Source: a phage. Taken from it: a stretch of 64,000 nucleotides of DNA. Below, piece by piece: positions 1 through 51,235 of the stretch. The stretch's first letter is position 1. Each line of letters opens with the position of its first letter. A model generated the notes under the pieces. The model did no database searches and was not told where the DNA came from. It saw only the letters and a list, made by a program, of their open reading frames with translations. Position numbers and translations under genes: made by a program. The DNA lies in sequence record PZ452582.1. One strand, 5' to 3'.

Positions 1-923
1 AGAAATATCGTCCATCTACTATCGATGAATGTATTCTTCCCGCCTTTGATAAAGAAACCTTTAAATCTATTACAAGTAAAGGTAAGATTCCACATATTAT
101 TCTTCATTCTCCTTCTCCAGGAACAGGTAAAACAACTGTAGCAAAAGCATTGTGTCATGATGTAAATGCTGATATGATGTTTGTGAATGGATCAGATTGT
201 AAAATTGATTTCGTTCGTGGTCCTTTGACTAATTTTGCCAGTGCAGCTTCATTTGATGGTCGTCAAAAAGTAATCGTTATTGATGAATTTGACCGCTCAG
301 GGTTAGCAGAGTCTCAGCGACATCTTCGTTCCTTTATGGAAGCTTATAGTTCAAACTGTAGTATTATTATTACTGCTAACAATATTGATGGTATTATTAA
401 ACCGCTTCAGTCACGCTGCCGAGTTATTACGTTCGGTCAACCGACCGATGAAGATAAAATTGAAATGATGAAGCAGATGATTCGTCGATTGACTGAAATC
501 TGCAAGCATGAAGGAATTGCTATAGCTGATATGAAAGTTGTAGCAGCTTTGGTTAAAAAGAATTTTCCTGATTTTCGTAAAACTATTGGCGAGCTCGATA
601 GTTATTCATCTAAAGGTGTTTTGGATGCTGGTATTTTATCACTGGTTACTAACGATCGTGGTGCTATTGATGATGTTCTTGAGTCTCTCAAAAATAAAGA
701 TGTTAAACAACTCAGAGCTTTAGCACCAAAATATGCAGCCGATTATTCGTGGTTCGTGGGTAAACTTGCCGAAGAAATCTATTCACGTGTAACTCCACAG
801 AGTATTATTCGTATGTACGAAATTGTCGGCGAAAATAATCAGTATCATGGTATTGCAGCTAATACTGAATTGCATCTAGCTTATCTTTTCATTCAATTAG
901 CATGCGAAATGCAGTGGAAGTGA
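1..923 (+). CDS. 44: Clamp-loader large subunit gp44 (5' partial, runs off window start)
   Basis: Frame open from nt 3; Walker [11 protein letters not shown] near the start; translation matches remembered T4 gp44; followed by 62 and regA. Confidence 0.9.
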
Positions 924-924
924 T

Positions 925-1488
925 ATGAGCTTATTTGAAGATGATATTCAATTAAACGAGCATCAAGTTGCTTGGTATTCTAAAGATTGGACAGCTGTCC
1001 AATCTGCTGCTGATACTTTTAAAGAAAAAGCTGAAAATGAATTTTTTGAAATAATTGGAGCTATTAATAATAAAACTAAATGCTCTATTGCTCAAAAAGA
1101 TTATTCAAAATTCATGGTTGAAAATGCATTATCACAATTTCCAGAGTGCATGCCAGCTGTATATGCTATGAATTTAATTGGATCAGGCTTAAGTGATGAA
1201 GCTCATTTTAATTATCTAATGGCTGCAGTTCCTCGTGGTAAAAGATATGGTAAATGGGCAAAACTAGTTGAAGATTCCACCGAAGTATTGATTATTAAGT
1301 TACTTGCTAAGCGGTATCAAGTTAATACAAATGATGCAATTAACTATAAATCAATTCTTACTAAAAATGGAAAACTACCTTTAGTATTAAAAGAACTTAA
1401 AGGATTAGTCACGGATGATTTTTTAAAAGAAGTGACTAAGAACGTAAAAGAACAGAAACAACTCAAAAAACTAGCATTGGAATGGTAA
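925..1488 (+). CDS. 62: Clamp-loader small subunit gp62
   Basis: 187 aa, same as T4 gp62; start abuts gene 44 stop; synteny 44-62-regA-43. Confidence 0.85.
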
Positions 1489-1489
1489 A

Positions 1490-1858
1490 ATGATTGAAAT
1501 TACTCTTAAAAAACCTGAAGATTTTCTGAAAGTAAAAGAAACTTTGACTCGTATGGGAATTGCTAATAATAAAGATAAAGTTCTGTATCAGTCCTGTCAT
1601 ATTCTTCAGAAAAAAGGACTATACTATATCGTTCATTTTAAAGAAATGCTTCGTATGGATGGTCGCCAAGTTGAAATGACAGAAGAAGATGAAGTTCGTC
1701 GTGATTCGATTGCATGGCTGTTAGAAGATTGGGGACTGATTGAAATCGTTCCTGGTCAAAGAACTTTTATGAAAGATTTAACTAATAACTTCCGAGTTAT
1801 TTCTTTTAAACAAAAACATGAATGGAAACTCGTTCCTAAATATACGATTGGTAATTAA
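1490..1858 (+). CDS. regA: RegA translational repressor
   Basis: 122 aa, matches remembered T4 RegA; position between 62 and 43. Confidence 0.9.
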   Translation: MIEITLKKPEDFLKVKETLTRMGIANNKDKVLYQSCHILQKKGLYYIVHFKEMLRMDGRQVEMTEEDEVRRDSIAWLLEDWGLIEIVPGQRTFMKDLTNNFRVISFKQKHEWKLVPKYTIGN

Positions 1859-1859
1859 T

Positions 1860-2081
1860 ATGACTGCTATAACTCCACAAGAATACATGGCGTCTCTTAA
1901 AGAAAAATATAATCTTTCTGCGACAGAAACACTTTTTGATTTACCAGAAAACCTCCAACTAAAATTTCAAGTAGAATTTCAAAAACTAGTTCACCCAGAA
2001 CAAAAACATTTTACTGCAGTCATTAAGTCAATTAATGCAGATGGATTGACAATTTTCACCCGGCAAATAGTACTAATTTAA
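1860..2081 (+). CDS. Hypothetical small protein (73 aa)
   Basis: ATG directly after regA stop; ORF ends just before a hairpin terminator; track ORF 1818 start overlaps regA so the 1860 ATG is preferred. Confidence 0.4.
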   Translation: MTAITPQEYMASLKEKYNLSATETLFDLPENLQLKFQVEFQKLVHPEQKHFTAVIKSINADGLTIFTRQIVLI

Positions 2082-2083
2082 GC

Positions 2084-2105
2084 AGGGGCTTCGGCCCCTT
2101 ATTTG
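2084..2105 (+). terminator. Rho-independent terminator hairpin (GGGGC-TTCG-GCCCC) plus T-rich tail
   Basis: Perfect 5-bp GC stem with TTCG tetraloop followed by TTATTT. Confidence 0.6.
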
Positions 2106-2122
2106 GAGTATAATATATCAAG

Positions 2123-2158
2123 AGCCTAATAACTCGGGCTATAAACTAAGGAATATCT
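2123..2158 (+). promoter_or_regulatory. Gene 43 translational operator (5-bp stem, 8-nt loop hairpin next to SD)
   Basis: AGCCT-AATAACTC-GGGCT hairpin directly 5' of AAGGAA SD and the gp43 ATG; matches the known gp43 autoregulatory operator architecture. Confidence 0.6.
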
Positions 2159-4855
2159 ATGAAAGAATTTTATATCTCTATTGAAACAGTCGGAAATAAC
2201 ATTGTTGAACGTTATATTGATGAAAACGGAAAGGAACGTACTCGTGAAGTAGAATATCTTCCGACTATGTTTAGGCATTGTAAGGAAGAGTCAAAATACA
2301 AAGACATCTATGGTAAAAACTGCGCTCCTCAAAAATTTCCATCAATGAAAGATGCTCGAGATTGGATGAAGCGAATGGAAGACATCGGTCTCGAAGCTCT
2401 CGGTATGAACGATTTTAAACTCGCTTATATCAGTGATACATATGGTTCAGAAATTGTTTATGACCGAAAATTTGTTCGTGTAGCTAACTGTGACATTGAG
2501 GTTACTGGTGATAAATTTCCTGACCCAATGAAAGCTGAATATGAAATTGATGCTATCACTCATTACGATTCAATTGATGATCGTTTTTATGTTTTCGACC
2601 TTTTGAATTCAATGTATGGTTCAGTATCAAAATGGGATGCAAAGTTAGCTGCTAAGCTTGACTGTGAAGGTGGTGATGAAGTTCCTCAAGAAATTCTTGA
2701 CCGAGTAATTTATATGCCATTCGATAACGAGCGTGATATGCTCATGGAATATATCAATCTCTGGGAACAGAAACGACCTGCTATTTTTACTGGTTGGAAT
2801 ATTGAGGGATTTGACGTTCCGTATATCATGAATCGCGTTAAAATGGTTCTCGGTGAACGTAGTATGAAACGCTTCTCTCCAATCGGTCGAGTAAAATCTA
2901 AACTAATTCAAAATATGTACGGTAGCAAAGAAATTTATTCTATTGATGGCGTATCTATTCTTGATTATTTAGATTTGTACAAGAAATTCGCTTTTACTAA
3001 TTTGCCGTCATTCTCTTTGGAATCAGTTGCTCAACATGAAACCAAAAAAGGTAAATTACCATATGATGGCCCTATTAATAAACTTCGTGAGACTAATCAT
3101 CAACGATACATTAGTTATAACATCATTGACGTAGAATCAGTTCAAGCAATTGATAAAATTCGCGGGTTTATCGATCTAGTTTTAAGTATGTCTTATTATG
3201 CTAAAATGCCTTTTTCTGGTGTAATGAGTCCTATTAAAACTTGGGATGCTATTATTTTTAACTCATTGAAAGGTGAACATAAGGTTATTCCTCAACAAGG
3301 TTCGCATGTTAAACAGAGTTTTCCGGGTGCATTTGTGTTTGAACCTAAACCAATTGCTCGTCGATATATTATGAGTTTTGACTTGACGTCTCTGTATCCG
3401 AGCATTATTCGTCAGGTTAACATTAGTCCTGAGACTATTCGTGGTCAGTTTAAAGTTCATCCAATTCATGAATATATCGCAGGAACAGCTCCTAAACCAA
3501 GTGATGAATATTCTTGTTCTCCGAATGGATGGATGTATGATAAGCATCAAGAAGGTATCATTCCAAAGGAAATCGCTAAAGTATTTTTCCAGCGTAAAGA
3601 TTGGAAAAAGAAAATGTTCGCTGAAGAAATGAATGCCGAAGCTATTAAAAAGATTATTATGAAAGGCGCAGGGTCTTGTTCAACTAAACCTGAAGTTGAA
3701 CGATATGTTAAGTTCAGTGATGATTTCTTAAATGAATTATCGAATTACACTGAATCTGTTCTTAATAGTCTGATCGAAGAATGTGAAAAAGCAGCTACAC
3801 TTGCTAACACAAATCAGCTGAACCGTAAAATTCTTATTAACAGTCTTTATGGTGCTCTTGGTAATATTCATTTCCGTTACTATGATTTGCGAAATGCTAC
3901 TGCTATCACAATTTTCGGCCAAGTTGGTATTCAGTGGATTGCTCGTAAAATTAATGAATATCTGAATAAAGTATGCGGAACTAATGGCGAAGATTTCATT
4001 GCAGCAGGTGATACTGATTCGGTATATGTTTGTGTAGATAAAGTTATTGAAAAAGTTGGTCTTGACCGATTCAAAGAGCAGAACGATTTAGTTGAATTCA
4101 TGAATCAGTTCGGTAAGAAAAAAATGGAACCGATGATTGATGTTGCATATCGTGAGTTATGTGATTATATGAATAACCGCGAGCATCTGATGCATATGGA
4201 CCGTGAAGCTATTTCTTGCCCTCCGCTTGGTTCAAAGGGTGTCGGTGGATTTTGGAAAGCGAAAAAGCGTTATGCTCTGAACGTTTATGATATGGAAGAT
4301 AAGCGATTTGCTGAACCGCATCTAAAAATCATGGGTATGGAAACTCAGCAAAGTTCAACGCCTAAAGCGGTTCAAGAAGCTCTCGAAGAAAGTATTCGTC
4401 GTATTCTTCAGGAAGGTGAAGAGTCTGTCCAAGAATATTACAAAAACTTCGAGAAAGAATATCGTCAACTTGACTATAAAGTTATTGCTGAAGTAAAAAC
4501 TGCGAACGATATAGCGAAATATGATGATAAAGGTTGGCCAGGATTTAAATGCCCGTTCCATATTCGTGGGGTGCTAACTTATCGTCGAGCTGTTAGCGGT
4601 TTAGGTGTAGCTCCAATTTTGGATGGAAATAAAGTAATGGTTCTTCCATTGCGTGAAGGAAATCCATTTGGTGACAAGTGCATTGCTTGGCCGTCGGGTA
4701 CAGAACTTCCAAAAGAAATTCGTTCTGACGTACTGTCTTGGATTGACTACTCAACTTTGTTCCAAAAATCGTTTGTTAAACCGCTTGCAGGCATGTGTGA
4801 ATCGGCTGGTATGGACTATGAAGAAAAAGCTTCGTTAGACTTCCTGTTTGGCTGA
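2159..4855 (+). CDS. 43: DNA polymerase gp43 (family B)
   Basis: 898 aa, same as T4 gp43; exonuclease and polymerase motifs (DTDS, YGDTDS-like GDTDSVY) visible; synteny. Confidence 0.95.
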   Translation: MKEFYISIETVGNNIVERYIDENGKERTREVEYLPTMFRHCKEESKYKDIYGKNCAPQKFPSMKDARDWMKRMEDIGLEALGMNDFKLAYISDTYGSEIVYDRKFVRVANCDIEVTGDKFPDPMKAEYEIDAITHYDSIDDRFYVFDLLNSMYGSVSKWDAKLAAKLDCEGGDEVPQEILDRVIYMPFDNERDMLMEYINLWEQKRPAIFTGWNIEGFDVPYIMNRVKMVLGERSMKRFSPIGRVKSKLIQNMYGSKEIYSIDGVSILDYLDLYKKFAFTNLPSFSLESVAQHETKKGKLPYDGPINKLRETNHQRYISYNIIDVESVQAIDKIRGFIDLVLSMSYYAKMPFSGVMSPIKTWDAIIFNSLKGEHKVIPQQGSHVKQSFPGAFVFEPKPIARRYIMSFDLTSLYPSIIRQVNISPETIRGQFKVHPIHEYIAGTAPKPSDEYSCSPNGWMYDKHQEGIIPKEIAKVFFQRKDWKKKMFAEEMNAEAIKKIIMKGAGSCSTKPEVERYVKFSDDFLNELSNYTESVLNSLIEECEKAATLANTNQLNRKILINSLYGALGNIHFRYYDLRNATAITIFGQVGIQWIARKINEYLNKVCGTNGEDFIAAGDTDSVYVCVDKVIEKVGLDRFKEQNDLVEFMNQFGKKKMEPMIDVAYRELCDYMNNREHLMHMDREAISCPPLGSKGVGGFWKAKKRYALNVYDMEDKRFAEPHLKIMGMETQQSSTPKAVQEALEESIRRILQEGEESVQEYYKNFEKEYRQLDYKVIAEVKTANDIAKYDDKGWPGFKCPFHIRGVLTYRRAVSGLGVAPILDGNKVMVLPLREGNPFGDKCIAWPSGTELPKEIRSDVLSWIDYSTLFQKSFVKPLAGMCESAGMDYEEKASLDFLFG

Positions 4856-4867
4856 TAGAATAAATCT

Positions 4868-4890
4868 AGGGACCTCCGGGTCCCTTTTTC
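4868..4890 (+). terminator. Rho-independent terminator (AGGGACC-TCCG-GGTCCCT, T5)
   Basis: 7-bp stem followed by TTTTT just after gp43 stop. Confidence 0.7.
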
Positions 4891-4971
4891 ATACAAGTAA
4901 TATAAATCTATACTTATGAAAAACAGATGATTCTGGACCTTTAGAATTCCCTAAAAAATTTTCACAAAACT

Positions 4972-7737: not shown

Positions 7738-8919
7738 ATGTCTATTGCAGATTTAAAATCCCGTTTGATTAAAGCTTCCACTTCTAAAATGACTGCTGAA
7801 CTGACTACATCTAAATTCTTTAATGAAAAGGATGTAATTCGTACAAAAATTCCAATGCTTAATATTGCTATTTCTGGTGCGATTGATGGCGGCATGCAGT
7901 CTGGTTTAACTATTTTCGCAGGGCCTTCTAAACACTTTAAATCAAATATGTCTTTGACTATGGTTGCGGCATATTTGAACAAATATCCTGACGCGGTTTG
8001 TCTATTCTATGATAGTGAATTTGGTATTACTCCAGCTTATTTGCGATCCATGGGAGTTGACCCGGAACGAGTAATTCATACGCCGATTCAGTCAGTTGAA
8101 CAGCTGAAAATTGATATGGTGAACCAGCTTGAAGCTATTGAGCGTGGTGAAAAGGTTATTGTATTCATCGACTCAATTGGTAATATGGCTTCTAAGAAAG
8201 AAACGGAAGATGCCTTGAATGAAAAATCTGTGGCAGATATGACTCGTGCTAAATCACTGAAGTCATTATTCCGTATTGTTACTCCTTACTTTAGCATTAA
8301 AAATATTCCATGTGTTGCGGTTAACCATACAATTGAAACAATTGAAATGTTTAGTAAAACCGTGATGACAGGTGGTACAGGCGTAATGTATTCGGCTGAT
8401 ACTGTATTCATTATCGGTAAGCGTCAGATTAAAGATGGTTCTGATCTTCAGGGGTATCAATTTGTTCTAAATGTAGAAAAATCTCGTACCGTTAAAGAAA
8501 AAAGTAAATTCTTTATTGATGTTAAATTTGACGGTGGTATCGATCCTTATTCTGGATTGTTAGATATGGCTCTAGAATTAGGATTTGTAGTAAAACCTAA
8601 AAATGGTTGGTATGCTCGTGAATTTCTTGACGAAGAAACCGGCGAGATGATTCGCGAAGAAAAATCTTGGCGTGCAAAAGATACTAACTGCACTACATTC
8701 TGGGGTCCTTTATTTAAGCATCAACCATTCCGAGATGCTATTAAGCGTGCTTATCAGTTAGGTGCTATTGATAGTAATGAAATTGTTGAAGCGGAAGTTG
8801 ATGAATTAATTAACTCAAAGGTTGAAAAATTTAAATCCTCAGAAAGTAAAAGTAAATCAGCAGCTGATTTAGAAACTGACCTCGAGCAGTTAAGTGATAT
8901 GGAAGAATTTAATGAATAA
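7738..8919 (+). CDS. uvsX: UvsX recombinase (RecA/Rad51 family)
   Basis: 393 aa; Walker A GPSKHFKS; near-identical to remembered T4 UvsX. Confidence 0.93.
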   Translation: MSIADLKSRLIKASTSKMTAELTTSKFFNEKDVIRTKIPMLNIAISGAIDGGMQSGLTIFAGPSKHFKSNMSLTMVAAYLNKYPDAVCLFYDSEFGITPAYLRSMGVDPERVIHTPIQSVEQLKIDMVNQLEAIERGEKVIVFIDSIGNMASKKETEDALNEKSVADMTRAKSLKSLFRIVTPYFSIKNIPCVAVNHTIETIEMFSKTVMTGGTGVMYSADTVFIIGKRQIKDGSDLQGYQFVLNVEKSRTVKEKSKFFIDVKFDGGIDPYSGLLDMALELGFVVKPKNGWYAREFLDEETGEMIREEKSWRAKDTNCTTFWGPLFKHQPFRDAIKRAYQLGAIDSNEIVEAEVDELINSKVEKFKSSESKSKSAADLETDLEQLSDMEEFNE

Positions 8920-40073: not shown

Positions 40074-40346
40074 ATGAATAAAAACATTGATACAGTTCGT
40101 GAAATTATTACTGTTGCGTCTATTTTGATTAAATTTTCCAGAGAAGATATTGTTGAGAATCGTGCTAATTTTATTGCATTTCTGAATGAGATTGGAGTAA
40201 CGCATGAAGGTAGAAAATTAAATCAGAATTCATTCCGTAAAATTGTTTCTGAATTAACTCAAGAAGATAAGAAAACCCTCATCGACGAATTCAACGAGGG
40301 TTTTGAGGGTGTATATCGATATCTAGAGATGTATACGAACAAATAA
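40074..40346 (+). CDS. asiA: AsiA anti-sigma70 factor
   Basis: 90 aa; sequence recognised as T4 AsiA. Confidence 0.93.
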   Translation: MNKNIDTVREIITVASILIKFSREDIVENRANFIAFLNEIGVTHEGRKLNQNSFRKIVSELTQEDKKTLIDEFNEGFEGVYRYLEMYTNK

Positions 40347-41003
40347 TTATTTAGCCCTTCCTAATATTCTGGCCGCCTGAGCACATATTGATTCAAGGCG
40401 GTCATTACTTATATGATCATTTCTATACCAGTACATGGTTATCGTTCCAGCATAGATATTATCCAAATTAAAATATGGACAACTGTACATGTAGTTTATT
40501 TCGGGAGTAGGCTTTTTAGTTGGTAAAAAAGCAAATTTTGAGTCAGAATAATAATGACGTCCATTTAAATGAACTGCATATTCATCCATAGTTTTATCAA
40601 CAGGATATCCTCCAAGTGATTTTTCAGTTATTGTTGAAGGTAATCTTCCTTCGTATGCTATAATATCAACAAAATAGTTTAAGTTTTTAGGGCGGAAAGA
40701 ATACACCGCACTAAAGTCTGCCTCAGATGATATATGAACTATCTGGAGTTGTTCCAGGGCGACAGATTCAAAGCGTGCATTTCTTTCCTTTTCAATAATT
40801 TCACTGTATGTTTCATACTTTGATTGCTTATAGTACTCAAAGAAACTATCTCCCCTATACCAAACAATCGCCATCATAAATAAAAGAATTACGACAGCTA
40901 CCCGGGAAGCAAGAACTTTCCCGGTAGCGTTATCTTTGAACAAGCGATCTAGAACACCAAATAGAATATCAGAGGGCGAAAATGATATTCTAGGTGCTGC
41001 CAT
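40347..41003 (-). CDS. t: Holin gpt
   Basis: 218 aa, same as T4 holin T; single N-terminal TM then large periplasmic domain; downstream of gene 38. Confidence 0.9.
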   Translation of the reverse strand: MAAPRISFSPSDILFGVLDRLFKDNATGKVLASRVAVVILLFMMAIVWYRGDSFFEYYKQSKYETYSEIIEKERNARFESVALEQLQIVHISSEADFSAVYSFRPKNLNYFVDIIAYEGRLPSTITEKSLGGYPVDKTMDEYAVHLNGRHYYSDSKFAFLPTKKPTPEINYMYSCPYFNLDNIYAGTITMYWYRNDHISNDRLESICAQAARILGRAK

Positions 41004-41035
41004 AGACCCTCCTTTTAAGGATATTTATTCAAAAA

Positions 41036-41821
41036 TTATACTCTTGAACCATATATTGTACCAACCTTAGTCCAAGTTGGAGCATTACCAGTAACAGCTT
41101 TACCGGCCGCACCGCCGTTATATTCTGATCCTTGCCCACGAATATTACATTTACCACCTGCGGCACCAGCATCACCGCCATTACCGCCATTATAGATACC
41201 ATTGACAGACCCTTTACCAGGTGCAGAAATAGTACCAGCAGTAGCGCCCTGTTCCATATTAGCAGACCCGCCAGCAGCACCAAATGGACGACCGCCGCCA
41301 CCGCCAAAAGTCAATTTCATTTGTGAAAAAGGAGAATAATATCCGCCTCCACCGCCGCCACCGCCTCCTGCGATAACACCATTGTTGTTAATACGCAATC
41401 TAGTTCCAATTCCATTATTTATTGCAGTTCCTCCTGCTCCACCGGCAGAGTTATTTCCGCCATTCCCGCCACGGCCCCAAACATGCACGCCTGAATTGAT
41501 ATTAAGTGTCACGTATGCATTAGTTAATGAGCTAGGAAAATCTAAGCATGGAACACCAGTAGATTGAGAAACAATATTTCCTGTAATAGTAATAACAACA
41601 GGCGTGGACCCTTGTGCTTTTATCCAGTTTATTAATGTATCTTTATTATAAGAATTACTAGCACCAATGCTATAATATACTTCTTTAGATTGTCCGGCCA
41701 TTGAGCTCATCCAACCGGGAACTGAAACACGGACTGCTCTCATTGCAGCATCCATCCAACGTTGTCCAGTTTCATTCACGGCAGATTCACCAATCCAGCC
41801 AGGAACACCTACAATTGCCAT
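41036..41821 (-). CDS. 38: gp38 tail-fibre adhesin (T2/T6 type, glycine-rich motifs)
   Basis: 261 aa with poly-Gly islands (GGGGGGGGYYSP, GGNGGNNSAGGAGG); position between 37 and t. Confidence 0.8.
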   Translation of the reverse strand: MAIVGVPGWIGESAVNETGQRWMDAAMRAVRVSVPGWMSSMAGQSKEVYYSIGASNSYNKDTLINWIKAQGSTPVVITITGNIVSQSTGVPCLDFPSSLTNAYVTLNINSGVHVWGRGGNGGNNSAGGAGGTAINNGIGTRLRINNNGVIAGGGGGGGGGYYSPFSQMKLTFGGGGGRPFGAAGGSANMEQGATAGTISAPGKGSVNGIYNGGNGGDAGAAGGKCNIRGQGSEYNGGAAGKAVTGNAPTWTKVGTIYGSRV

Positions 41822-41832
41822 TAAAAATCCTT

Positions 41833-41850
41833 AGAGGGCCGAAGCCCTCT
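41833..41850 (-). other. Intercistronic RNA hairpin between genes 37 and 38
   Basis: AGAGGGC-TTCG-GCCCTCT right after gp37 stop and just before AAGGA SD of gene 38. Confidence 0.5.
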
Positions 41851-41851
41851 T

Positions 41852-44800
41852 TTACATAAGTTTAGATTCAAGTTCTTTTACACGAGAAGAAAGCGTTTTC
41901 ACAGCTTCAACCAGAAGAGCAATCTGGGCTTGAGAAGAAACAGTGAGTATTTTATTACCCTTGCTGTCTTCTGTTTCACGGACGGCTTCTGGTAAAACGT
42001 CTTGTAGCGTTTGAGCTACAATACCCGCTTCAGTTTCAATTGCCTCTCCACCGATGTATTCAGCTTTATCATAAATGACACCATTGAGTTTTTCAACTTT
42101 ATCAAGTGCATTTTCGATAGGTTTGAAATTAGATTTTAAGCGAATATCAGAACGAATATAAACGTTTGGGGCATTTATATTTTTATATGAGTACAAATCA
42201 CCATTTTGGAAACGGAAAGTCTGTACACCATTCGCATATATGTCTAATAATCCATCGCCATTTTGCTTAATACCAGTGTCATTATCGCCAAACGCTATAC
42301 TATTTCCACCAAGTGCGTTATTGATGTTAATACCAAATGAATTCATTTGATTAACACCAGCTACAGTAGCATTATTTACTACAAAGCGATTAGCTCCACC
42401 TGGTGTTTTTTCAAAGTAAGCAATATAGTTAGTTTCATCGGCAATTTCAATACGGTTACCGCGAGAAGCATCGCCAGCATGAAATATTCTCATATTTCTC
42501 GGGTTAGCACCTGATTTATCAAAGTTAATAGAACCATTATCTTTGACGTTTATGCTATTATAGAATAAAGCAGCGCTGCGAACAGCTATGCCATTATTCA
42601 TCATCACTTCGCCGGTTGTTAAGTTAATTGCGAAAGGACGTTTACTATTCCAATCGCCATTAACAGTTGCTGCGCCATCGGTGGCATTTTTATCTGTAAA
42701 CAGAATATAAAAACTACCGCCATCATTTCGTAGCATTGTAGCAACAGAACCAGTTTTATCGCTGTTGCTTCTGATACGAATACCGGTTTGGTTATTAATA
42801 GCTATTTCAGAATCGGCTTCATAACGCTTAACTTTACCGCGATCAACTAAGTTATTAAGAACATTAGCAACTTGACCATTAACTGCTGTATCTGGAAGAG
42901 CATCTACAGGTGATTGTGTAGATGAGTTAATACCAATAACACTAACAGTAGCATTTTCGGTACATGACCACTCACAAGCTAATTGATTACAATATGTTCC
43001 AGCAGAAACATAAATGTCATATGTATCTCCAGAGACGTTATTAACTGCAATATCTTTAAATGCAGCTCCAATTGTTCTTGTGTATAATGCAGCATTTAAG
43101 TCAGCAGGTCTTTCATTACTAGTACGTAAAACAATTTCAGCAATATTACATTGTGTGAATAATCCGCTATTAAATCCAGAACCTCCAACTATTTTAAAGA
43201 AGACCGTTGAAGTGGATTGTGGCATTGTTACTGTTGCAAACTTATACCATCCAGCGGTTGCTCCATAAGTAATAAATCCAGAATTAACTTTACGGTTTAA
43301 CGTGGTATTTAAATTGGCAAAGTTTCCTGAACCACTGGTAATATTACCGTCAGTTCCTAGTTGGGCATTTCCGACTTTAAGAGGCTTAGTAATATCGACA
43401 GTATCAGAGTTTAATGCAATACCATGGGAGTGAGTGTAACTATGCATACGAACGACGTTTCCGCCATCGCCAATACCTAAATACCATTTCGGAACATCTG
43501 CTTTACGTCCTTGGATGAAGTTAGAAGACTCTTGCGTTGGAGCATTTATTCTAATAGCATCTGATGCCATATTTAGTGTTATACGTTGATTAGAAGTAGT
43601 TCCAGCCACTTCTACTTTAAATCTACCGCCGCCAATATCTACATCATGATCCATGGAAACTTTACCATTACTTAATGTAATATAGAACGGACGTAAATTA
43701 GAAATGCCGCCTGATTCACCCGCATTCTGTGGGGTTGGAATAATATAAAACTTATCTTCAGAACGACGGAAAATAGCACCGTATTCAGCATTCCAAATTC
43801 TTAATGCATCAGCAGTTCCGCCGATTTTAACTTGTCCATTTACAGACAATCCATTATCAGCATTCAGGGAAGATCTTGTTGTAATAGAACCAGAAGTTAA
43901 TAAACTACCGGCCATCGCAAATTCAACAGAACCGGCAGTAGAACCTGCTGCAGGAGCAACGCGCTGTGAATAAAAATGCCAACCCTGTCCATCGCCTAAT
44001 TCAAATACAGTTTCTCTGTTTTTATTAGTGTTATCCTCAAATGCATTGCCCCATGCTTTCATGGTCACATAGCTTTTGTTCTGACCCGGGCGGGTGCCTG
44101 CGTTCCATTGTATTGTCTTAGTTCCATTTATAGAAGAAGAAGCGCCAAATTTAAGACCGGCGTTAGAAGAACTACTATTAAAGAATAACCCATTATTAAG
44201 CTTAACTTCTTGAGTAGATGCAACAGTACCATCAGCACGCAAATTTAATGAATTTGAACCAGTTTTAATATCTAAAATGCCAGGCTCAACAAGAAGTCCA
44301 TCGCCCATACTAACGGACATACGACCTGTACCACGGAAATAGTGATACATTTTAGAATTACTGCTATAACCGATATGAGTTTGACCATCACCGTTATTAT
44401 TACCATCAACATCGGTACGCGCAGTAAACATTGCTTGGTTGTTATTTGGGAAATCCCAAGTAGTACCAGAATCGCGGCTATAACCGACCATCAATTTTTT
44501 AGTACTATTAATACCATTATTAATAATAGTCGCCGCAGAAATACCGTTAGCCATTAAGTCAATAACGCCAGTACGAACCCATTTAAGTCCAGAAGCATTA
44601 TCGCCAAGAGCTAAATACCTATCTCCCATTACCCCGGTATTTCCATAATCGCTTGACGGGTATCCTTCAGTCACAGTACCAATGGCCAAGCTATTGCGGA
44701 TAATCATTCTACCGTCGTTACGAATACCGTATAGTTTAAATAACGGTATATTACCAGTCCACCAAGAAACTTCATCAGCTAGCCCAGTCTGAGCTGTACA

Positions 44801-45511
44801 AATTTCATGGTAAATAGTTCCACCTGATTTAGCTCGAACTTTACGAAGATAGTTTACACCATTTGTTTCGCCTGTGCCAGGATAAACATACTGAACTAAT
44901 GACTGCGAATCATAGGTCCCAAAAGATTTAGAATCATGATTAATTAAATTAACACTAATAGTTGGTGTACTAATAGAAGTTAAAGCAGTTAATTTGCGTG
45001 CCTGGAAGATACCGCCATCAGTAGAAATGAAATGAAATTCTGAATTTTGAGCTCCCGCAGCGGTTCCTTGACGAACACGCATTGTAATTACGCCTTCATT
45101 TTCAGACTGCGGTTTTGAATATAAAACGCCACGTTCTGAGCCATTTGTATTTTCAAACCAAAGATGGGCATTTGCAGTATCATTTATTGCTCTTGTATAA
45201 AATGAACCGGATGTTGATCTGAATACTGTAGCAGAAACAATATTACTTGCCGTAATAGTACCACTTGTAGAAAAATTTCCAAAGTTGTTTATTGGTCCAT
45301 TGACGCGTAAAGTTCCATCAATAGTTACATTTCCATTAATTTGACCGCCTTTAGCAATACCTAGATCAATGATATTTCCTGAATCATCTTTAGTAAAAAT
45401 TGTTCTATCTTTTAAGTTTATAGCCAATTCACCTTCGGCTAATACTGAAGCAGCAGGACGTGCACCTGCGGTTTTGCTTCTTTTAAATTGTATTTGTTTT
45501 AAAGTAGCCAT
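41852..45511 (-). CDS. 37: gp37 long tail fibre distal subunit
   Basis: 1219-aa ORF between 36 and 38; Gly/Ser/Thr/Asn-rich fibrous composition. Confidence 0.88.
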   Translation of the reverse strand: MATLKQIQFKRSKTAGARPAASVLAEGELAINLKDRTIFTKDDSGNIIDLGIAKGGQINGNVTIDGTLRVNGPINNFGNFSTSGTITASNIVSATVFRSTSGSFYTRAINDTANAHLWFENTNGSERGVLYSKPQSENEGVITMRVRQGTAAGAQNSEFHFISTDGGIFQARKLTALTSISTPTISVNLINHDSKSFGTYDSQSLVQYVYPGTGETNGVNYLRKVRAKSGGTIYHEICTAQTGLADEVSWWTGNIPLFKLYGIRNDGRMIIRNSLAIGTVTEGYPSSDYGNTGVMGDRYLALGDNASGLKWVRTGVIDLMANGISAATIINNGINSTKKLMVGYSRDSGTTWDFPNNNQAMFTARTDVDGNNNGDGQTHIGYSSNSKMYHYFRGTGRMSVSMGDGLLVEPGILDIKTGSNSLNLRADGTVASTQEVKLNNGLFFNSSSSNAGLKFGASSSINGTKTIQWNAGTRPGQNKSYVTMKAWGNAFEDNTNKNRETVFELGDGQGWHFYSQRVAPAAGSTAGSVEFAMAGSLLTSGSITTRSSLNADNGLSVNGQVKIGGTADALRIWNAEYGAIFRRSEDKFYIIPTPQNAGESGGISNLRPFYITLSNGKVSMDHDVDIGGGRFKVEVAGTTSNQRITLNMASDAIRINAPTQESSNFIQGRKADVPKWYLGIGDGGNVVRMHSYTHSHGIALNSDTVDITKPLKVGNAQLGTDGNITSGSGNFANLNTTLNRKVNSGFITYGATAGWYKFATVTMPQSTSTVFFKIVGGSGFNSGLFTQCNIAEIVLRTSNERPADLNAALYTRTIGAAFKDIAVNNVSGDTYDIYVSAGTYCNQLACEWSCTENATVSVIGINSSTQSPVDALPDTAVNGQVANVLNNLVDRGKVKRYEADSEIAINNQTGIRIRSNSDKTGSVATMLRNDGGSFYILFTDKNATDGAATVNGDWNSKRPFAINLTTGEVMMNNGIAVRSAALFYNSINVKDNGSINFDKSGANPRNMRIFHAGDASRGNRIEIADETNYIAYFEKTPGGANRFVVNNATVAGVNQMNSFGININNALGGNSIAFGDNDTGIKQNGDGLLDIYANGVQTFRFQNGDLYSYKNINAPNVYIRSDIRLKSNFKPIENALDKVEKLNGVIYDKAEYIGGEAIETEAGIVAQTLQDVLPEAVRETEDSKGNKILTVSSQAQIALLVEAVKTLSSRVKELESKLM

Positions 45512-45519
45512 AAGTCCTC

Positions 45520-46179
45520 TTAATAATAGCCGAAATCTTGAACAGAATCCTTAATTACGATTTGGTCAAATCGTGGAACGTGTGAAGGTTGAGATGCAGG
45601 ATTCTGCGAGAAAAAGTTTGGTGCGGTTAAGTTTCCAGTCATAGTGTCTCCTTTACGGAAAACTCTAGAATCCGCATTTGCCGTAACAGTATTTATTGCT
45701 CCATCAACATAATCTTTTCGAGTAAGGTCATTCACTGCTATAGGAGCAGCCGCATCACTTCTTACTTGACCTGATGCTGATACAACACCTTTTGTGCTAA
45801 TATCACCATTACGTGTATTAATTACAACAGTTCGGGCTGCTGAACCTTGTGATGATTTAAAACCAATACCGTACCACGAAACAATATCCATATTTGTAGT
45901 ATCATACGTGGCATTATCACCAGGACCAGCAAAAATACCATTGTCACCTGATCCTGCGCCAGGGACAGTCATCCCTTTATTAAAAATTACCTTATTTAAA
46001 TAAGTACCGCCATTAGCTTTAGAAACGAAATCGTTATCAGCCGCTTGCGGTTTATTGTATTCTGAATATATTTTAAATGATTTATAGAGTACATCGTCAC
46101 CGGCTGGATTCAATGGAAAATTTCCTTGATGCCAAATGACAGAGCCTCCAGTTGTTGAACCTACTTTTAAATCAGCCAT
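45520..46179 (-). CDS. 36: gp36 long tail fibre distal connector
   Basis: 219 aa (T4 gp36 about 221); position. Confidence 0.85.
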   Translation of the reverse strand: MADLKVGSTTGGSVIWHQGNFPLNPAGDDVLYKSFKIYSEYNKPQAADNDFVSKANGGTYLNKVIFNKGMTVPGAGSGDNGIFAGPGDNATYDTTNMDIVSWYGIGFKSSQGSAARTVVINTRNGDISTKGVVSASGQVRSDAAAPIAVNDLTRKDYVDGAINTVTANADSRVFRKGDTMTGNLTAPNFFSQNPASQPSHVPRFDQIVIKDSVQDFGYY

Positions 46180-46241: not shown

Positions 46242-47357
46242 TTAAACTTCTCTAAATTCTTGCCCAAACACTTTACCAGTTTTAGACGATGCTTGTGTAG
46301 GAAGTACCATTATATCCGGAGGTGAAGCAGATTCACAGATATAATTAACACGAATACCATTGACGCCAAATTCAGCAGGTTTTGAAATGCCGCCGTTTCT
46401 TGATACTTCAGAAAAGCTTAAATTTCGCATACCGCCTTGTCCAGCTTGAGCAGTTCTTTGCGCATATATCGTAAATCCAACTGCATTTTCTGGAACAACT
46501 ACATAGTCTTCCTTTAATTCCCAAGACCCAGCCTGTCCAGTAAACTCAGCTTGTGTCGAGGAAATATATCCATTAGATGCATTATAAAAACGGATAGATA
46601 TATTTGTAGTTCCAAGCGCAAGTAAATCAGCATCGGCATATAACTGGGCTTTAAGATAAAGAACGTCACCAGGAATTAAATTATAATCAGAGAGTTTACT
46701 TATAGCAGCTGAAGTTGGTAATCTTGCAATTTCGTTATTAGTTCCACCAACCGCTGACATAAATTGCTCAACGCTTTCATACGTTCTTCTTGGAAACCCG
46801 GTAGCTCCGACGTCTTCTAAACTGTCAAATACAACATCTAAAATAGTTTGATAATCATCTGTGCTTTTTCTATTACTCAGTTTAACATGCTCTAATGCAA
46901 TAGCTCTTTTAGAAGAAGTATAAAAAGCAGCATATGATACGTCGAATCTTGACAATACAGAGTCAGATGGAAAAGCAGACGTTCCTGCTGTTCTTAACCA
47001 AGATACTACTTCAGGAGGAAAATTAACCTTTCCGTTAGTTAATATAGCAACAATTCGATTATTCGTCAAAGAATTCATGAAACTAACAAAGGCAGCTGAT
47101 GTAGTATCATTTGAAGTCGAAAAAGCATATGATTTACTATCAACTAATGCTCCGGTGGAAGGGTCAAAAACTCTTAAATGAAGACCTGCGCTAAATGTTT
47201 GATTTCCTACAGGATTATCCTGAAATTTAACGTATGGTCCTGCTGTAGAAAGCGGGCAAGAACCCGCTATGCTTATTTTATATCTTACTGAATTGCTTTC
47301 CGATAAAAATGGCGTTTGGACATATCCTTGTCCAAACTCTGCCATAAATTTTTCCAT
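46242..47357 (-). CDS. 35: gp35 long tail fibre hinge connector
   Basis: 371 aa (T4 gp35 372); position. Confidence 0.85.
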   Translation of the reverse strand: MEKFMAEFGQGYVQTPFLSESNSVRYKISIAGSCPLSTAGPYVKFQDNPVGNQTFSAGLHLRVFDPSTGALVDSKSYAFSTSNDTTSAAFVSFMNSLTNNRIVAILTNGKVNFPPEVVSWLRTAGTSAFPSDSVLSRFDVSYAAFYTSSKRAIALEHVKLSNRKSTDDYQTILDVVFDSLEDVGATGFPRRTYESVEQFMSAVGGTNNEIARLPTSAAISKLSDYNLIPGDVLYLKAQLYADADLLALGTTNISIRFYNASNGYISSTQAEFTGQAGSWELKEDYVVVPENAVGFTIYAQRTAQAGQGGMRNLSFSEVSRNGGISKPAEFGVNGIRVNYICESASPPDIMVLPTQASSKTGKVFGQEFREV

Positions 47358-47365
47358 AATACCTC

Positions 47366-50300
47366 TTATTCAACCCATTCAAATTTAACCGTTTTATTCA
47401 CTGGGTCAGGAATAATGCGAACATTACCAATTCGTAAGAAATCACGAATAGTAAGATTCCCCATTGTAGCATTATCAGATGGTAAAGCACCGATATCAGA
47501 CGGCTGAGGAGGGTTACCTCCGTCAAATACCTGAACAAAACTTGACCAAGAGTTTTTGGTTTTCTGCCATGTACGTGTCCAGCGAGTGGTACGCGCTTCT
47601 GGCGTCGTTGGATAAGTAATCCAATCTTGGTAAAGCGAATCAAGTGTGTTACCAAACTGAGTCAGTGTACCAGGAGATTTAACTTCTTCGCCACGTTCTA
47701 AGTATGGAAGCCCAGTCACTTCGTTAGTTTTTTCAACCATTTTAAAATAACCCGGGAATTGGTTATAAGTAGCTGAATCGTTAATATCAATTGACCAGAA
47801 TCCTACCGTATCAGATGTTGGTGCACGGGTATATAAATCAGATGTTTTAGTACCCTGAGAACGAATTCTCGAGTTAACAGTCAAACCACCTGAATTTATA
47901 GTAGCACCTTTAGCAATGATTAAGCTTTCACCGATCGTTACTTGACCAGATGCATTATTAATAGCTAAAGGACGTAATCCATTAAATCCGCCAGTCTGAT
48001 CACCCGATGCAGTAAGCATAAAATATGTGTTAGCAGCATCATTGCGAATAAAGAATCCATAGTCGCCATTTATTGCTCTGAAAGCATTTGCAGACTTGCT
48101 GATGAATTCGCCATTGGCTGTAACTGAACTACCAAATGTTGCTACGCCATTCGCATTCAATGAACCGGAAGCGTTAACATTTATTGGCATCACAGTACCA
48201 TTAATGCTAAACGTAATATTACCAGCTTTATTACGTTGAGAATAAAAGTGATTAGATGTTTCATCACCAACTTCAAATACAGTAGAACGCGTTGTATCTG
48301 ATCCGCCACCAAACTGATTTCCCCAAACTCTGATAGTCATCGTCTGCGCTGGGTTAGTTCCAGTTTGAGGTCCTTTCTCAAAAATCAGACGAGTTGCCGT
48401 TCCAGTATTAGAAATAGTTAATGTACTATTTGCCGAAACTGATCCACCAAACGTAGCAGTACTAGATGATACAAGAGGGGCACTCAGATTCGTTTGTTGG
48501 GTTAAGGTTAGTGAACCATTAACCGTCTGTGCGATATCCCTACGAATGAACTGAGATGAATCTAGACCATCCAATAAATTTGTATCAGCAGCTTTTGCTT
48601 TTAATGGCAAATAATTTGCTAATACACGGTTTAATTCATATGGTGATACCGCATAGCTATTTTTCTCATACAGTTCTAAATCTTGGGTAGAACCGACTGT
48701 ATCATTACCAACGAATGTAATTGAACCAGATGAAGTTTTAACAAAACCTCTTATTGCAGTAGTAGCTGCCCAAGTAGGTTCACTCTGCACAATCCATTTT
48801 AAATTTTTTGGAGATACAGCAGTGTTCGCTGACGTTCCAGTCACAGTTTCAGACTGAGTTGCAACTTTAATAACACCTTCTTGCGATTCGGTAGATTTAG
48901 TACCTAAAAGCTTTTTAGGAGTTATTAAAACATTATCTAATGTTCCTGCAGCAGCTTCAACTTGTGTAGCTACACGAAGTGTACCACGTTGCGTCTCATT
49001 TGCTTCAAGAATATTAAGGGTATAATGGTCCCAGAGAGTTCCTGATTCAACTAATCCAGATAGAGCAACAACAGAAGTACGATCAGTACTATTAAATCTG
49101 GTTTTAATTTTTAATGGTGTAGAGATACGAGTATCGTCGACGCCTGCGTCGAATTCAACTTGTGTAGCAATTTCAGCTATACCACTTAAACTTTCAGTTG
49201 CTCTACGGTCATTTAAAGTTTTAGGAGTGACTGCACGAGTATAATCAGTTCCTGTATTAACTTCACTTTGCGTAGCAATTTCAATTAAACCAATTCTTCC
49301 ATCAGTTGATGTCTTTTTATGTAACGTTTCTGGCGTTACAACAGCATTTGCCCATCCTTCTTGACTTTGACCAGCAATTACTTCACTTTCAACTGCTAAA
49401 ATTACTGCACCTTGCTGTGTTGGAGTAGCTTTATACTGATCCAAAGCTTTTGGCGAAACAACTAAATTATTAGTGTTTTTATTATAAACATTCGTACCAT
49501 TTAATTCACGGCTAGAAGCTGGAGTAGCACCTGCAGTAGATACAAAAGTTACAATACCAGATAATGATTCAGAACCTTGACGAGCTTGAAGCTTTTTAGG
49601 AGTAATGATGGTTGTATCATCTGTTCCTGCGTTTGTTTCTTGCTGAGTAGCAATTTCTGCAACACCTCTGCGAGTTTCTGTAGCAGTTCTTTCATTCAGC
49701 TTTTTAGGAGTGATGATAATATCATCAGCAAAAGAGAATGTGGTGTTCTGATTCACTTGAGCAGTAGTTGCTATTCTTGCAATACCTCTGCGAGTTTCAG
49801 TAGCAGTACGGTTAGCTAATGTTTCTGGAGTAATTGCTAATTCTTTTTGTGGAGAATTTTCTAAATCGACGTTAGCTTGAGCTTGTGTAGCTAAAGCAAT
49901 TACGCCTAATCTTGCTCTAGTAGAATCATTTAAAGAATCTACTCTTTCGACAGTTGGAACGTTTTGCTGTACAACCCAATATTTTCCATCAGAATCTTCA
50001 ATATAAGCAAGTTGTAAAACTGGAACATAATTAGTTTCACCGTTAAAAACTAATTCTTGAACAGTCACCCATTCAGCTTCAGGCGGATATTCTGAACGTT
50101 TTGGGAATTGCAGCAATTGAACTGAAGAAGCAATTTTATCTTCACCTGCAGCTTTGATTTTAACTGTTTGTCCTTTTCTCATGTAATTCATGGAAATTTT
50201 AACAGTATCACCAACAGAAATATTAGTTGGAAGCTGAAGCTCAATCGTTTGAGTTGTTCCGTTATTTGCACCAAATACCATAACTTCTTCGTTTGGACGA

Positions 50301-51235
50301 ATATTTGAATTAGTCGTTATGATACGTAAACGTGCTTTACTGTCCCCGTCAAACAATCTCCATAATTTCTCATTATCATCAAACATCAAGAAACCGTCAA
50401 TCGATGTACGGCCTTCAATGGAATGAGTTCCATCTTCTTGTACTGATGTTGTTTCATCATATGTCGTAACAATTGTATGATAAAGTGGATTTAGTTTATC
50501 CAAATCAACGAAATTAATAATATCGCCATGATTAGCAAATCTTGGAAGTTTAATATTTATCGGTGCAGCAGAAGTAAATCTACGTACGATAAAATCGTTG
50601 GATTGCGCTTGATAAGTATTCGCTGGTGTTACAACTACAGCTTCTCTACTATAATCAGCTACATACATTTGCCACAGACGATTACTAAAAATTAAAACTA
50701 GCTGTGACTTTGGATGAGTCATTAGTACTGAACGTACTTGTTCACCTCTGAAGTTTACAATACTTTGCACCGGAGCTACAATTAAAACTTGGTTAACTCC
50801 AGGTTTTCCTCCAATATCTTGGAGAACGATAGTATCACCATCAATTGGAGAAGATGGTAAAGTAAATGTAATATCATTACCAGCTGCGGTGTTAACCGAA
50901 ATAGCTTCACCGGATTTTAATTGATATGAACCAGATGAAACCGTAATCCAGTTAGCATCGGTACGTAATGCTCTCCAGCGTCCGCTATTAAAAGCTCCTG
51001 CCGGTTTTGGAATATCATTTATAGCAGCCCAAAAGCGGTTATCATAAATGATTACAAAATCTTTTAAATATCCACGAGTTGGATCATATTGTTGAACTGT
51101 GTTTTCTTGAATTAAGTAATCAACGTTAACACCGTCAGTTCCTACGGTACGATCAGCTAAAGCTACGTTGATTATTTTATCACCACCTGCGTCCAGACCA
51201 TCTTCTGCTCTGAACTTTCTTTTAATCTCGGCCAT
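47366..51235 (-). CDS. 34: gp34 long tail fibre proximal subunit
   Basis: 1289 aa, same as T4 gp34; repeated beta-rich motifs. Confidence 0.92.
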   Translation of the reverse strand: MAEIKRKFRAEDGLDAGGDKIINVALADRTVGTDGVNVDYLIQENTVQQYDPTRGYLKDFVIIYDNRFWAAINDIPKPAGAFNSGRWRALRTDANWITVSSGSYQLKSGEAISVNTAAGNDITFTLPSSPIDGDTIVLQDIGGKPGVNQVLIVAPVQSIVNFRGEQVRSVLMTHPKSQLVLIFSNRLWQMYVADYSREAVVVTPANTYQAQSNDFIVRRFTSAAPINIKLPRFANHGDIINFVDLDKLNPLYHTIVTTYDETTSVQEDGTHSIEGRTSIDGFLMFDDNEKLWRLFDGDSKARLRIITTNSNIRPNEEVMVFGANNGTTQTIELQLPTNISVGDTVKISMNYMRKGQTVKIKAAGEDKIASSVQLLQFPKRSEYPPEAEWVTVQELVFNGETNYVPVLQLAYIEDSDGKYWVVQQNVPTVERVDSLNDSTRARLGVIALATQAQANVDLENSPQKELAITPETLANRTATETRRGIARIATTAQVNQNTTFSFADDIIITPKKLNERTATETRRGVAEIATQQETNAGTDDTTIITPKKLQARQGSESLSGIVTFVSTAGATPASSRELNGTNVYNKNTNNLVVSPKALDQYKATPTQQGAVILAVESEVIAGQSQEGWANAVVTPETLHKKTSTDGRIGLIEIATQSEVNTGTDYTRAVTPKTLNDRRATESLSGIAEIATQVEFDAGVDDTRISTPLKIKTRFNSTDRTSVVALSGLVESGTLWDHYTLNILEANETQRGTLRVATQVEAAAGTLDNVLITPKKLLGTKSTESQEGVIKVATQSETVTGTSANTAVSPKNLKWIVQSEPTWAATTAIRGFVKTSSGSITFVGNDTVGSTQDLELYEKNSYAVSPYELNRVLANYLPLKAKAADTNLLDGLDSSQFIRRDIAQTVNGSLTLTQQTNLSAPLVSSSTATFGGSVSANSTLTISNTGTATRLIFEKGPQTGTNPAQTMTIRVWGNQFGGGSDTTRSTVFEVGDETSNHFYSQRNKAGNITFSINGTVMPINVNASGSLNANGVATFGSSVTANGEFISKSANAFRAINGDYGFFIRNDAANTYFMLTASGDQTGGFNGLRPLAINNASGQVTIGESLIIAKGATINSGGLTVNSRIRSQGTKTSDLYTRAPTSDTVGFWSIDINDSATYNQFPGYFKMVEKTNEVTGLPYLERGEEVKSPGTLTQFGNTLDSLYQDWITYPTTPEARTTRWTRTWQKTKNSWSSFVQVFDGGNPPQPSDIGALPSDNATMGNLTIRDFLRIGNVRIIPDPVNKTVKFEWVE

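Follow-up and report, generated by a model that had tools for sequence, protein, structure and literature searches.

A T2/T6-type gp38 adhesin with a T6-like specificity cassette and a probable Tsx receptor in a T-even phage

Gene 38 and the long tail fiber region

The window analyzed here is a phage DNA stretch of 64,000 nucleotides (sequence record PZ452582.1). Gene 38 lies on the minus strand, starting 30 nt downstream of gene 37 and ending 32 nt upstream of the holin gene t (Table 1). The order 37-38-t was established from the ORF map and the Pfam matches of the neighboring genes and is common to T2, T6, and nine BASEL phages. Genes 34 to 38 form the long tail fiber operon of a T-even phage. 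Over the 20 kb around gene 38, identity with Tequatrovirus genomes was about 95-96%, the best match being Shigella phage Sf22.

A hairpin directly follows the stop codon of gene 37 and lies just ahead of the Shine-Dalgarno sequence of gene 38 (AAGGA). It could act as an RNA-stability or translational-coupling element. A promoter scan of positions 40300-42000 gave 4 sites against a mean of 4.7 in shuffled sequence, which is no excess. Other ORFs overlapped gene 38, one on the minus strand (92 aa) and three on the plus strand (64, 61, and 52 aa), those of 61-92 aa in its glycine-rich half (41029-41567). As genes these were called spurious, since gene 38, which encloses them, matches its family over the full length and they have no features of their own. 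They are probably present because GGN-rich sequence leaves stop-free stretches.

Table 1. Features of the gene 38 locus (coordinates in the window; residue numbers in the protein concerned)
Feature	Coordinates	Strand	Basis or remark
Holin t, 218 aa	40347..41003	-	Pfam Phage_holin_T, 3e-116; fixes the canonical 37-38-t order
Gene 38, T2/T6-type receptor-recognizing adhesin	41036..41821	-	261-aa ORF, ATG start; stop codon counted in the coordinates
N-terminal attachment domain, residues 1-46	41684..41821	-	Gp38_N covers 1-42; by analogy would dock on the gp37 trimer tip
First part of central beta-helix domain, residues 47-115	41477..41683	-	AlphaFold2 strands; T2-lineage sequence
Glycine-rich specificity domain, residues 116-240 (GRM1-5 and HVS1-4)	41102..41476	-	Predicted polyglycine-II sandwich; Foldseek to 6f45_D and 9v85
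GRM1, residues 116-122 (GRGGNGG)	41456..41476	-	Alignments; entropy 0.36 bits
GRM2, residues 152-160 (G9)	41342..41368	-	Upstream switch point of T6-like cassette
GRM3, residues 172-181 (FGGGGGRPFG)	41279..41308	-	Alignments, entropy
GRM4, residues 212-216 (GGNGG)	41174..41188	-	Alignments, entropy
GRM5, residues 236-240 (GGAAG)	41102..41116	-	Downstream switch point of T6-like cassette
T6-like HVS2-HVS4 cassette, residues 149-237	41111..41377	-	Sliding nucleotide identity, HVS identity
Hairpin, 7 bp, GC-rich, UUCG loop (AGAGGGC-TTCG-GCCCTCT)	41833..41850	-	Terminator-like consensus scan
Gene 37, T2-type distal long tail fiber subunit	41852..45511	-	1219 aa; Pfam Peptidase_S74, Gp34_trimer, gp37_trimer
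gp37 C-terminal intramolecular chaperone (S74), residues 1121-1219	41852..42151	-	PF13884 over 1121-1178
Gene 36	45520-46179	-	219 aa; size as annotated gp36 of T6, T2, and Sf22
Gene 35	46242-47357	-	371 aa; size as annotated gp35 of T6, T2, and Sf22
Gene 34	47366-51235	-	1289 aa; size as annotated gp34 of T6, T2, and Sf22

Family, architecture, and predicted fold of gp38

The gp38 protein matched the Pfam families PF05268 (GP38; 3.5e-72, 243.2 bits) and PF21721 (Gp38_N; 8.2e-18, 64.6 bits), in both cases above the curated cut-off of 25 bits. The same pair was found for T2 gp38 and T6 gp38. Among the PHROGs it was placed in phrog_2056, annotated as "tail fiber protein; host specificity" (2.3e-105). 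PF05268 was present in all matches listed from a search of 5.8 billion proteins with gp38. Sequence matches in the PDB were to S16 gp38 (6f45_D, 2.7e-49, residues 8-259) and PP01 gp38 (9v85, 1e-33). The protein aligned over its full length to T6 gp38 (65% identity) and over residues 1-148 to T2 gp38 (76%). Together with the T2-type gp37 described below, the Pfam and structure-database matches agree with the earlier note, which had assigned gp38 to the T2/T6 type.

The gp38 proteins of T2 and T6 sit on the virion fiber tip and are required for adsorption but not for fiber assembly (PMC3157838). T6 g38 amber mutants form normal-looking virions that do not adsorb (PMC3157838), which argues for such a gp38 being an adhesin rather than an assembly factor. 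S16 gp38 is likewise located at the virion fiber tip (PMC6851490). By analogy, the gp38 described here would also be a virion protein.

Glycine made up 60 of the 261 residues of gp38. Only 11 of these were in residues 1-115 (9.6% of 115) while 49 were in residues 116-261 (34% of 146). Runs of nine (152-160) and five (173-177) glycines were present along with nine GG doublets. A run of at least nine glycines was obtained in 2 of 20,000 shuffles preserving the composition of gp38. Boundaries of glycine-rich motifs (GRMs) and hypervariable segments (HVSs) are our own reading of the alignment, after the scheme of Trojet et al., 2011 (PMC3157838). Conservation was measured as column entropy in an alignment of 58 gp38 homologues, all of them search hits. 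The mean column entropy was 0.36-0.68 bits in GRM1-5, compared to 2.78 bits in HVS2, 1.99 bits in HVS3, and 1.92 bits in HVS4 (GRM1-5 against HVS2-4, Mann-Whitney p = 1e-11). Segment lengths among the homologues varied from 6 to 14 residues in HVS2, 27 to 40 in HVS3, and 17 to 21 in HVS4. HVS1 was only moderately variable (0.97 bits). In all, five conserved glycine-rich motifs were found to separate four hypervariable segments, HVS1 being the moderate one. GRM2 paired with S16 gp38 151-GGGGGGGG-158. The glycine counts, the shuffles, and the entropy contrast all confirmed the description of gp38 in the earlier note as poly-glycine islands split by variable segments, an arrangement that is real and greatly exceeds what chance would give.

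An AlphaFold2 model of gp38 was built on the 58-sequence alignment, with a pLDDT of 92.9 and a pTM of 0.85. A Foldseek search of the PDB with this model returned 6f45_D (E 3.8e-22, TM 0.79/0.83) and 9v85_C (E 3.5e-19, TMt 0.85) and no further significant neighbor, the next having an E value of 1.9. The predicted fold consists of an attachment domain, a beta-helix, and a polyglycine-II sandwich as in S16 gp38. The polyglycine-II assignment is based on superposition on 6F45 and 9V85, as DSSP leaves the glycine stretches of the model unassigned. S16 gp38 (6F45 chain D) and the receptor-binding domain of PP01 gp38 (9V85) share this three-domain fold (TM 0.79-0.85) at approximately 42-43% identity. 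Both are solved structures of OmpC-binding proteins, and their distal loops and receptor are unlike those of the gp38 described here, whose structure is predicted.

Helices were modeled in the attachment domain at residues 10-18, 23-29, and 38-41. Three tryptophans, W9, W22, and W37, were invariant in a 12-sequence reference alignment, and W9 and W22 were at least 90% conserved among the 58 homologues. They correspond to the three Trp that anchor S16 gp38 on the gp37 trimer, which has pockets for them (PMC6851490). The attachment domain was 98% identical to that of T2 and 65% identical to that of T6. Residues 47-115 were 93-97% identical to Bas45 and Bas43, 62% to T2, and 35% to T6.

The partner protein gp37 is of the T2 type as judged by its sequence, having an S74 chaperone C-terminus and no T4-type tip. 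It aligned with T4 gp37 over residues 1-791 only (T4 residues 1-849), and nothing in it corresponded to the receptor-binding tip of T4 gp37 (T4 residues 850-1026). T4 gp37 matched PF07484 (Collar) and PF03335 (Phage_fiber repeats, His-rich) while gp37 here matched neither. Its last 165 aa were 93% identical to T2 gp37. For the C-terminal region, matches were obtained to chain 6f45_A, the S16 gp37 of the gp37-gp38 complex (9e-13), and to 7dc3, the auto-processing domain of MYRF. The S74 family uses a Ser-Lys dyad with the two residues five positions apart. By analogy gp37 would cleave itself at R1120|S1121 (SDIRLK), with S1121 and K1126 as the putative dyad and K1126 as the base. The VYIR|SD junction was kept in all 12 T2-type gp37 proteins compared.

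Mosaic structure of gene 38 and the receptor

The 261 aa gp38 was 100% identical in 15 phage records by tblastn. This was verified for FriedrichMiescher (Bas39, MZ501066; 777 of 786 nt) and Shigella phage JK38 (MK962755; 782 of 786 nt). The identical protein was also present in slur02/04/11/13, teqsoen, teqhal, JK1, and JLBYU22. The BASEL supplement equates FriedrichMiescher with Bas39 and WilhelmHis with Bas35, and according to its supplementary table Bas39 uses Tsx as its primary receptor (PMC8594841). For JK38, Tsx/Kdo was reported by RB-TnSeq (bioRxiv 10.64898/2026.04.02.716166), the JK38 of the preprint being equated here with MK962755 by name and Irish origin. In both phages the identical gp38 is encoded at the same site between gene 37 and t, although the adjoining gp37 of Bas39 is only 67.5% identical to gp37 here. 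Gene 37 of JK38 (locus positions 478-4969) is annotated in two parts, a CDS at 478-3198 and an overlapping one at 3185-4969, which suggests a frameshift or a sequencing error in the deposit.

Twelve adhesins of known receptor were compared segment by segment. HVS2, HVS3, and HVS4 were 82-91, 77-80, and 74-79% identical, respectively, to those of T6, Bas35, Bas36, and Bas37, all of which use Tsx. The corresponding values were 0, 22, and 32% for T2 (FadL), 9, 23, and 36% for the OmpF binders, and 18, 59, and 63% for Bas45 (OmpA). With all HVSs pooled, identity was 73-76% to T6 and Bas35-37 compared to 35-37% to FadL and OmpF binders. The HVS2-HVS4 cassette tracked the receptor, in line with the proposal of the earlier note that the variable segments are the likely specificity determinants. 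The receptors that it listed for comparison, OmpA, OmpC, OmpF, and FadL, did not include Tsx, the one indicated by the identical proteins of Bas39 and JK38.

Overall identity failed as a predictor of the receptor. The OmpA binder Bas45 (87%) was closer to gp38 than the Tsx binder T6 (65%). Per-segment and sliding-window analyses showed that this misleading result was due to mosaicism. Sliding nucleotide identity was computed on the codon alignment. Residues 1-148 had 85-100% nucleotide identity to Bas45, Bas43, Sf22, and T2. Residues 149-237 had 75-92% to T6 and Bas36, against 31-69% to T2 and Sf22, and residues 238-261 returned to 92-93% with Bas45, Bas43, and Sf22. From these comparisons gene 38 reads as a T2-lineage scaffold carrying a T6-like cassette, a natural exchange with junctions at GRM2 and GRM5. 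The T6-like HVS2-HVS4 cassette is the probable determinant of Tsx specificity. The type of scaffold goes with the gp37 tip, as seen in the T2 likeness of both the attachment domain and the gp37 C-terminus.

The two closest classical relatives differ from gp38 here in opposite parts. T6 gp38 (MH550421), the classical Tsx adhesin, has the same length of 261 aa and the same Pfam families and aligned without gaps, with GRMs 100% identical and HVS2, HVS3, and HVS4 at 82, 77, and 74%. Its first 115 residues were 47% identical and its cognate gp37 C-terminus was approximately 41% identical to those described here. T2 gp38 (MH751506), a FadL/OmpF adhesin, belongs to the same family, has the same architecture, and shares the attachment domain and gp37 C-terminus, but its HVS2-HVS4 differ, the BLASTP alignment ends at residue 148, and the receptor is another one. 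The gp38 of Sf22 has the same first 60 residues and an unrelated specificity half. The modular design of gp38 was described earlier by Trojet et al. (PMC3157838) and is confirmed by a gp38 swap, exchanged from HVS2 onward, which changed the receptor from Tsx to OmpA (bioRxiv 10.64898/2026.04.02.716166).

The nucleoside channel Tsx is the most probable receptor of gp38 here, since the identical gp38 occurs in the Tsx-dependent phages Bas39 and JK38 and HVS2-4 are of the T6 class. Direct contact between gp38 and Tsx is what these comparisons suggest; the Tsx assignments themselves come from genetics at the level of whole phages, and the gp37 shafts of those phages are unlike the one here. Few changes are needed to alter specificity in this family. 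Between one and three residue changes in HVS2 or HVS3 can add a receptor or replace it, examples being PST, which uses Tsx plus OmpA (PMC3157838), and RB68, where Q206L changed the receptor from OmpF to OmpW (bioRxiv 10.64898/2026.04.02.716166). Secondary receptors may therefore be used beside Tsx. A different primary receptor is unlikely, as the gp38 sequence is identical to that of Tsx-dependent phages.

The gp38 of Bas43 (TadeuszReichstein; locus positions 7753-8544) represents a second Tsx-associated allele class. Its residues 1-115 were 97% identical to gp38 here, with HVS2, HVS3, and HVS4 at 45, 53, and 38%. The divergent HVSs of Bas43 mean that HVS similarity is an incomplete predictor and that at least two sets of loops achieve Tsx recognition.

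Proposed attachment, gp37, and annotation

It is highly probable that this T2/T6-type gp38 caps the tip of the gp37 distal half-fiber and establishes the initial, reversible contact with a host outer membrane protein, with Tsx the most probable receptor. In the proposed sequence of events the S74 chaperone domain of gp37 would cut itself off at R1120|S1121, which would expose the gp37 tip. One gp38 monomer would then plug onto the cleaved gp37 trimer through its three-helix domain (W9, W22, and W37). The central beta-helix would bear two long excursions, with the glycine-rich motifs packed there into polyglycine-II helices. From the distal face the hypervariable loops would protrude and bind the extracellular loops of Tsx, and this contact would lead to deployment of the short fibers.

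The earlier note had also held that the host range is probably set by gp38 rather than by the gp37 tip. This was supported for the primary (porin) receptor but not for the host range as a whole, which further depends on the short tail fiber gp12, the LPS core, surface glycans, and host immunity (PMC8594841; bioRxiv 10.64898/2026.04.02.716166). The best tblastn match of gp37 among 50,697 phage records was 80% identical (Sf22), and most were 65-74%. It is unlikely, though conceivable given this divergence, that with gp38 binding Tsx the gp37 shaft or tip also shapes receptor choice or host range, so that gp38 would not be the sole determinant. The low identity to Bas39 gp37 and the influence of gp12, LPS, and host immunity would fit such a role, and an effect of regions other than the HVSs, for example the gp38 N-terminus, on OmpA recognition by PST has been suggested by Trojet et al. 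(PMC3157838). However, the divergence of gp37 sits in the shaft. The first residues are conserved, as are the last 165, which are T2-like and provide both the platform for gp38 docking and the chaperone that would be cleaved off. In the S16 structure gp38 caps the gp37 tip (PMC6851490), leaving no end of gp37 exposed, and in related phages a change of gp38 by itself was enough for a full switch of the porin receptor (bioRxiv 10.64898/2026.04.02.716166). The pairing of a known Tsx adhesin with a gp37 shaft no more than 80% identical to any in those 50,697 records could change strain reach, for example through O-antigen or capsule layers, or add a second receptor, but we consider this improbable.

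A gp38 adhesin with OmpA, OmpC, OmpF, or FadL as primary receptor instead of Tsx is very unlikely. Bas45 (PaulHMueller), an OmpA phage, is by overall identity the closest non-identical relative of known receptor, and for Sf22, the closest genome over the surrounding 20 kb, resistance was mapped to ompC (PMC12892980). The ease with which a few HVS residues switch the receptor also leans this way. The likeness to Bas45 and Sf22 is confined to the N-terminal scaffold (96 and approximately 100%, respectively, over the first residues), falling in HVS2 to 18% for Bas45, while Sf22 is unalignable beyond residue 149. Against it also stand the two Tsx-dependent phages with identical gp38 and the fit of HVS2-4 to the T6 class, both of which favor Tsx.

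T4 gp38 (NP_049864) resembles gp38 here in gene name and map position only. It is an unrelated sequence of 183 aa and is not a virion component (PMC12892980). BLASTP found no similarity between the two proteins (E = 19 over 23 residues). T4 gp38 was placed in phrog_105, "tail fiber assembly", and shares no PHROG family with gp38 here. It matched no Pfam family at E <= 0.01, so Pfam could not place the T4-type family whereas PHROGs did place T4 gp38. The T4 record itself states that the "gp38" of the T2 subfamily is unrelated to T4 gp38. Grouping with the T4 chaperone, which the earlier note had named as the outcome that would count against it, was not seen in either the alignment or the PHROG assignment. 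That gp38 here is a T4-type chaperone for gp37 trimerization, absent from the virion and leaving the receptor to the gp37 tip, has next to no probability and is refuted at the level of sequence, for the shared name, the shared place between gene 37 and t, and several GenBank records calling the identical protein "distal long tail fiber assembly catalyst" or "tail assembly protein" are set against the lack of similarity to T4 gp38, the GP38 and Gp38_N families that T4 gp38 lacks, and a gp37 with the S74 domain in place of the T4 tip (Collar, Phage_fiber repeats), and these "assembly" annotations look like names transferred from T4.

The modular adhesin, its structure, the GRM-flanked cassette exchange, and the Tsx class are all published and the exact protein has been deposited repeatedly, so none of this is new. 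For annotation, gene 38 here encodes a receptor-binding adhesin and not an assembly factor. A receptor call of Tsx made from sequence alone is useful for the choice of phages for cocktails and the prediction of resistance routes. The receptor is tracked by the HVS2-HVS4 cassette only and not by overall gp38 identity. Some records of the identical protein already say adhesin or receptor-recognizing protein. Records MN895436 (teqsoen), MN895435 (teqhal), OZ034682, OY720014, and MH550421 (T6) carry the names "distal long tail fiber assembly catalyst", "tail assembly protein", or "hypothetical protein". Such assembly names on identical or homologous adhesins appear to have been carried over from the unrelated T4 gp38.
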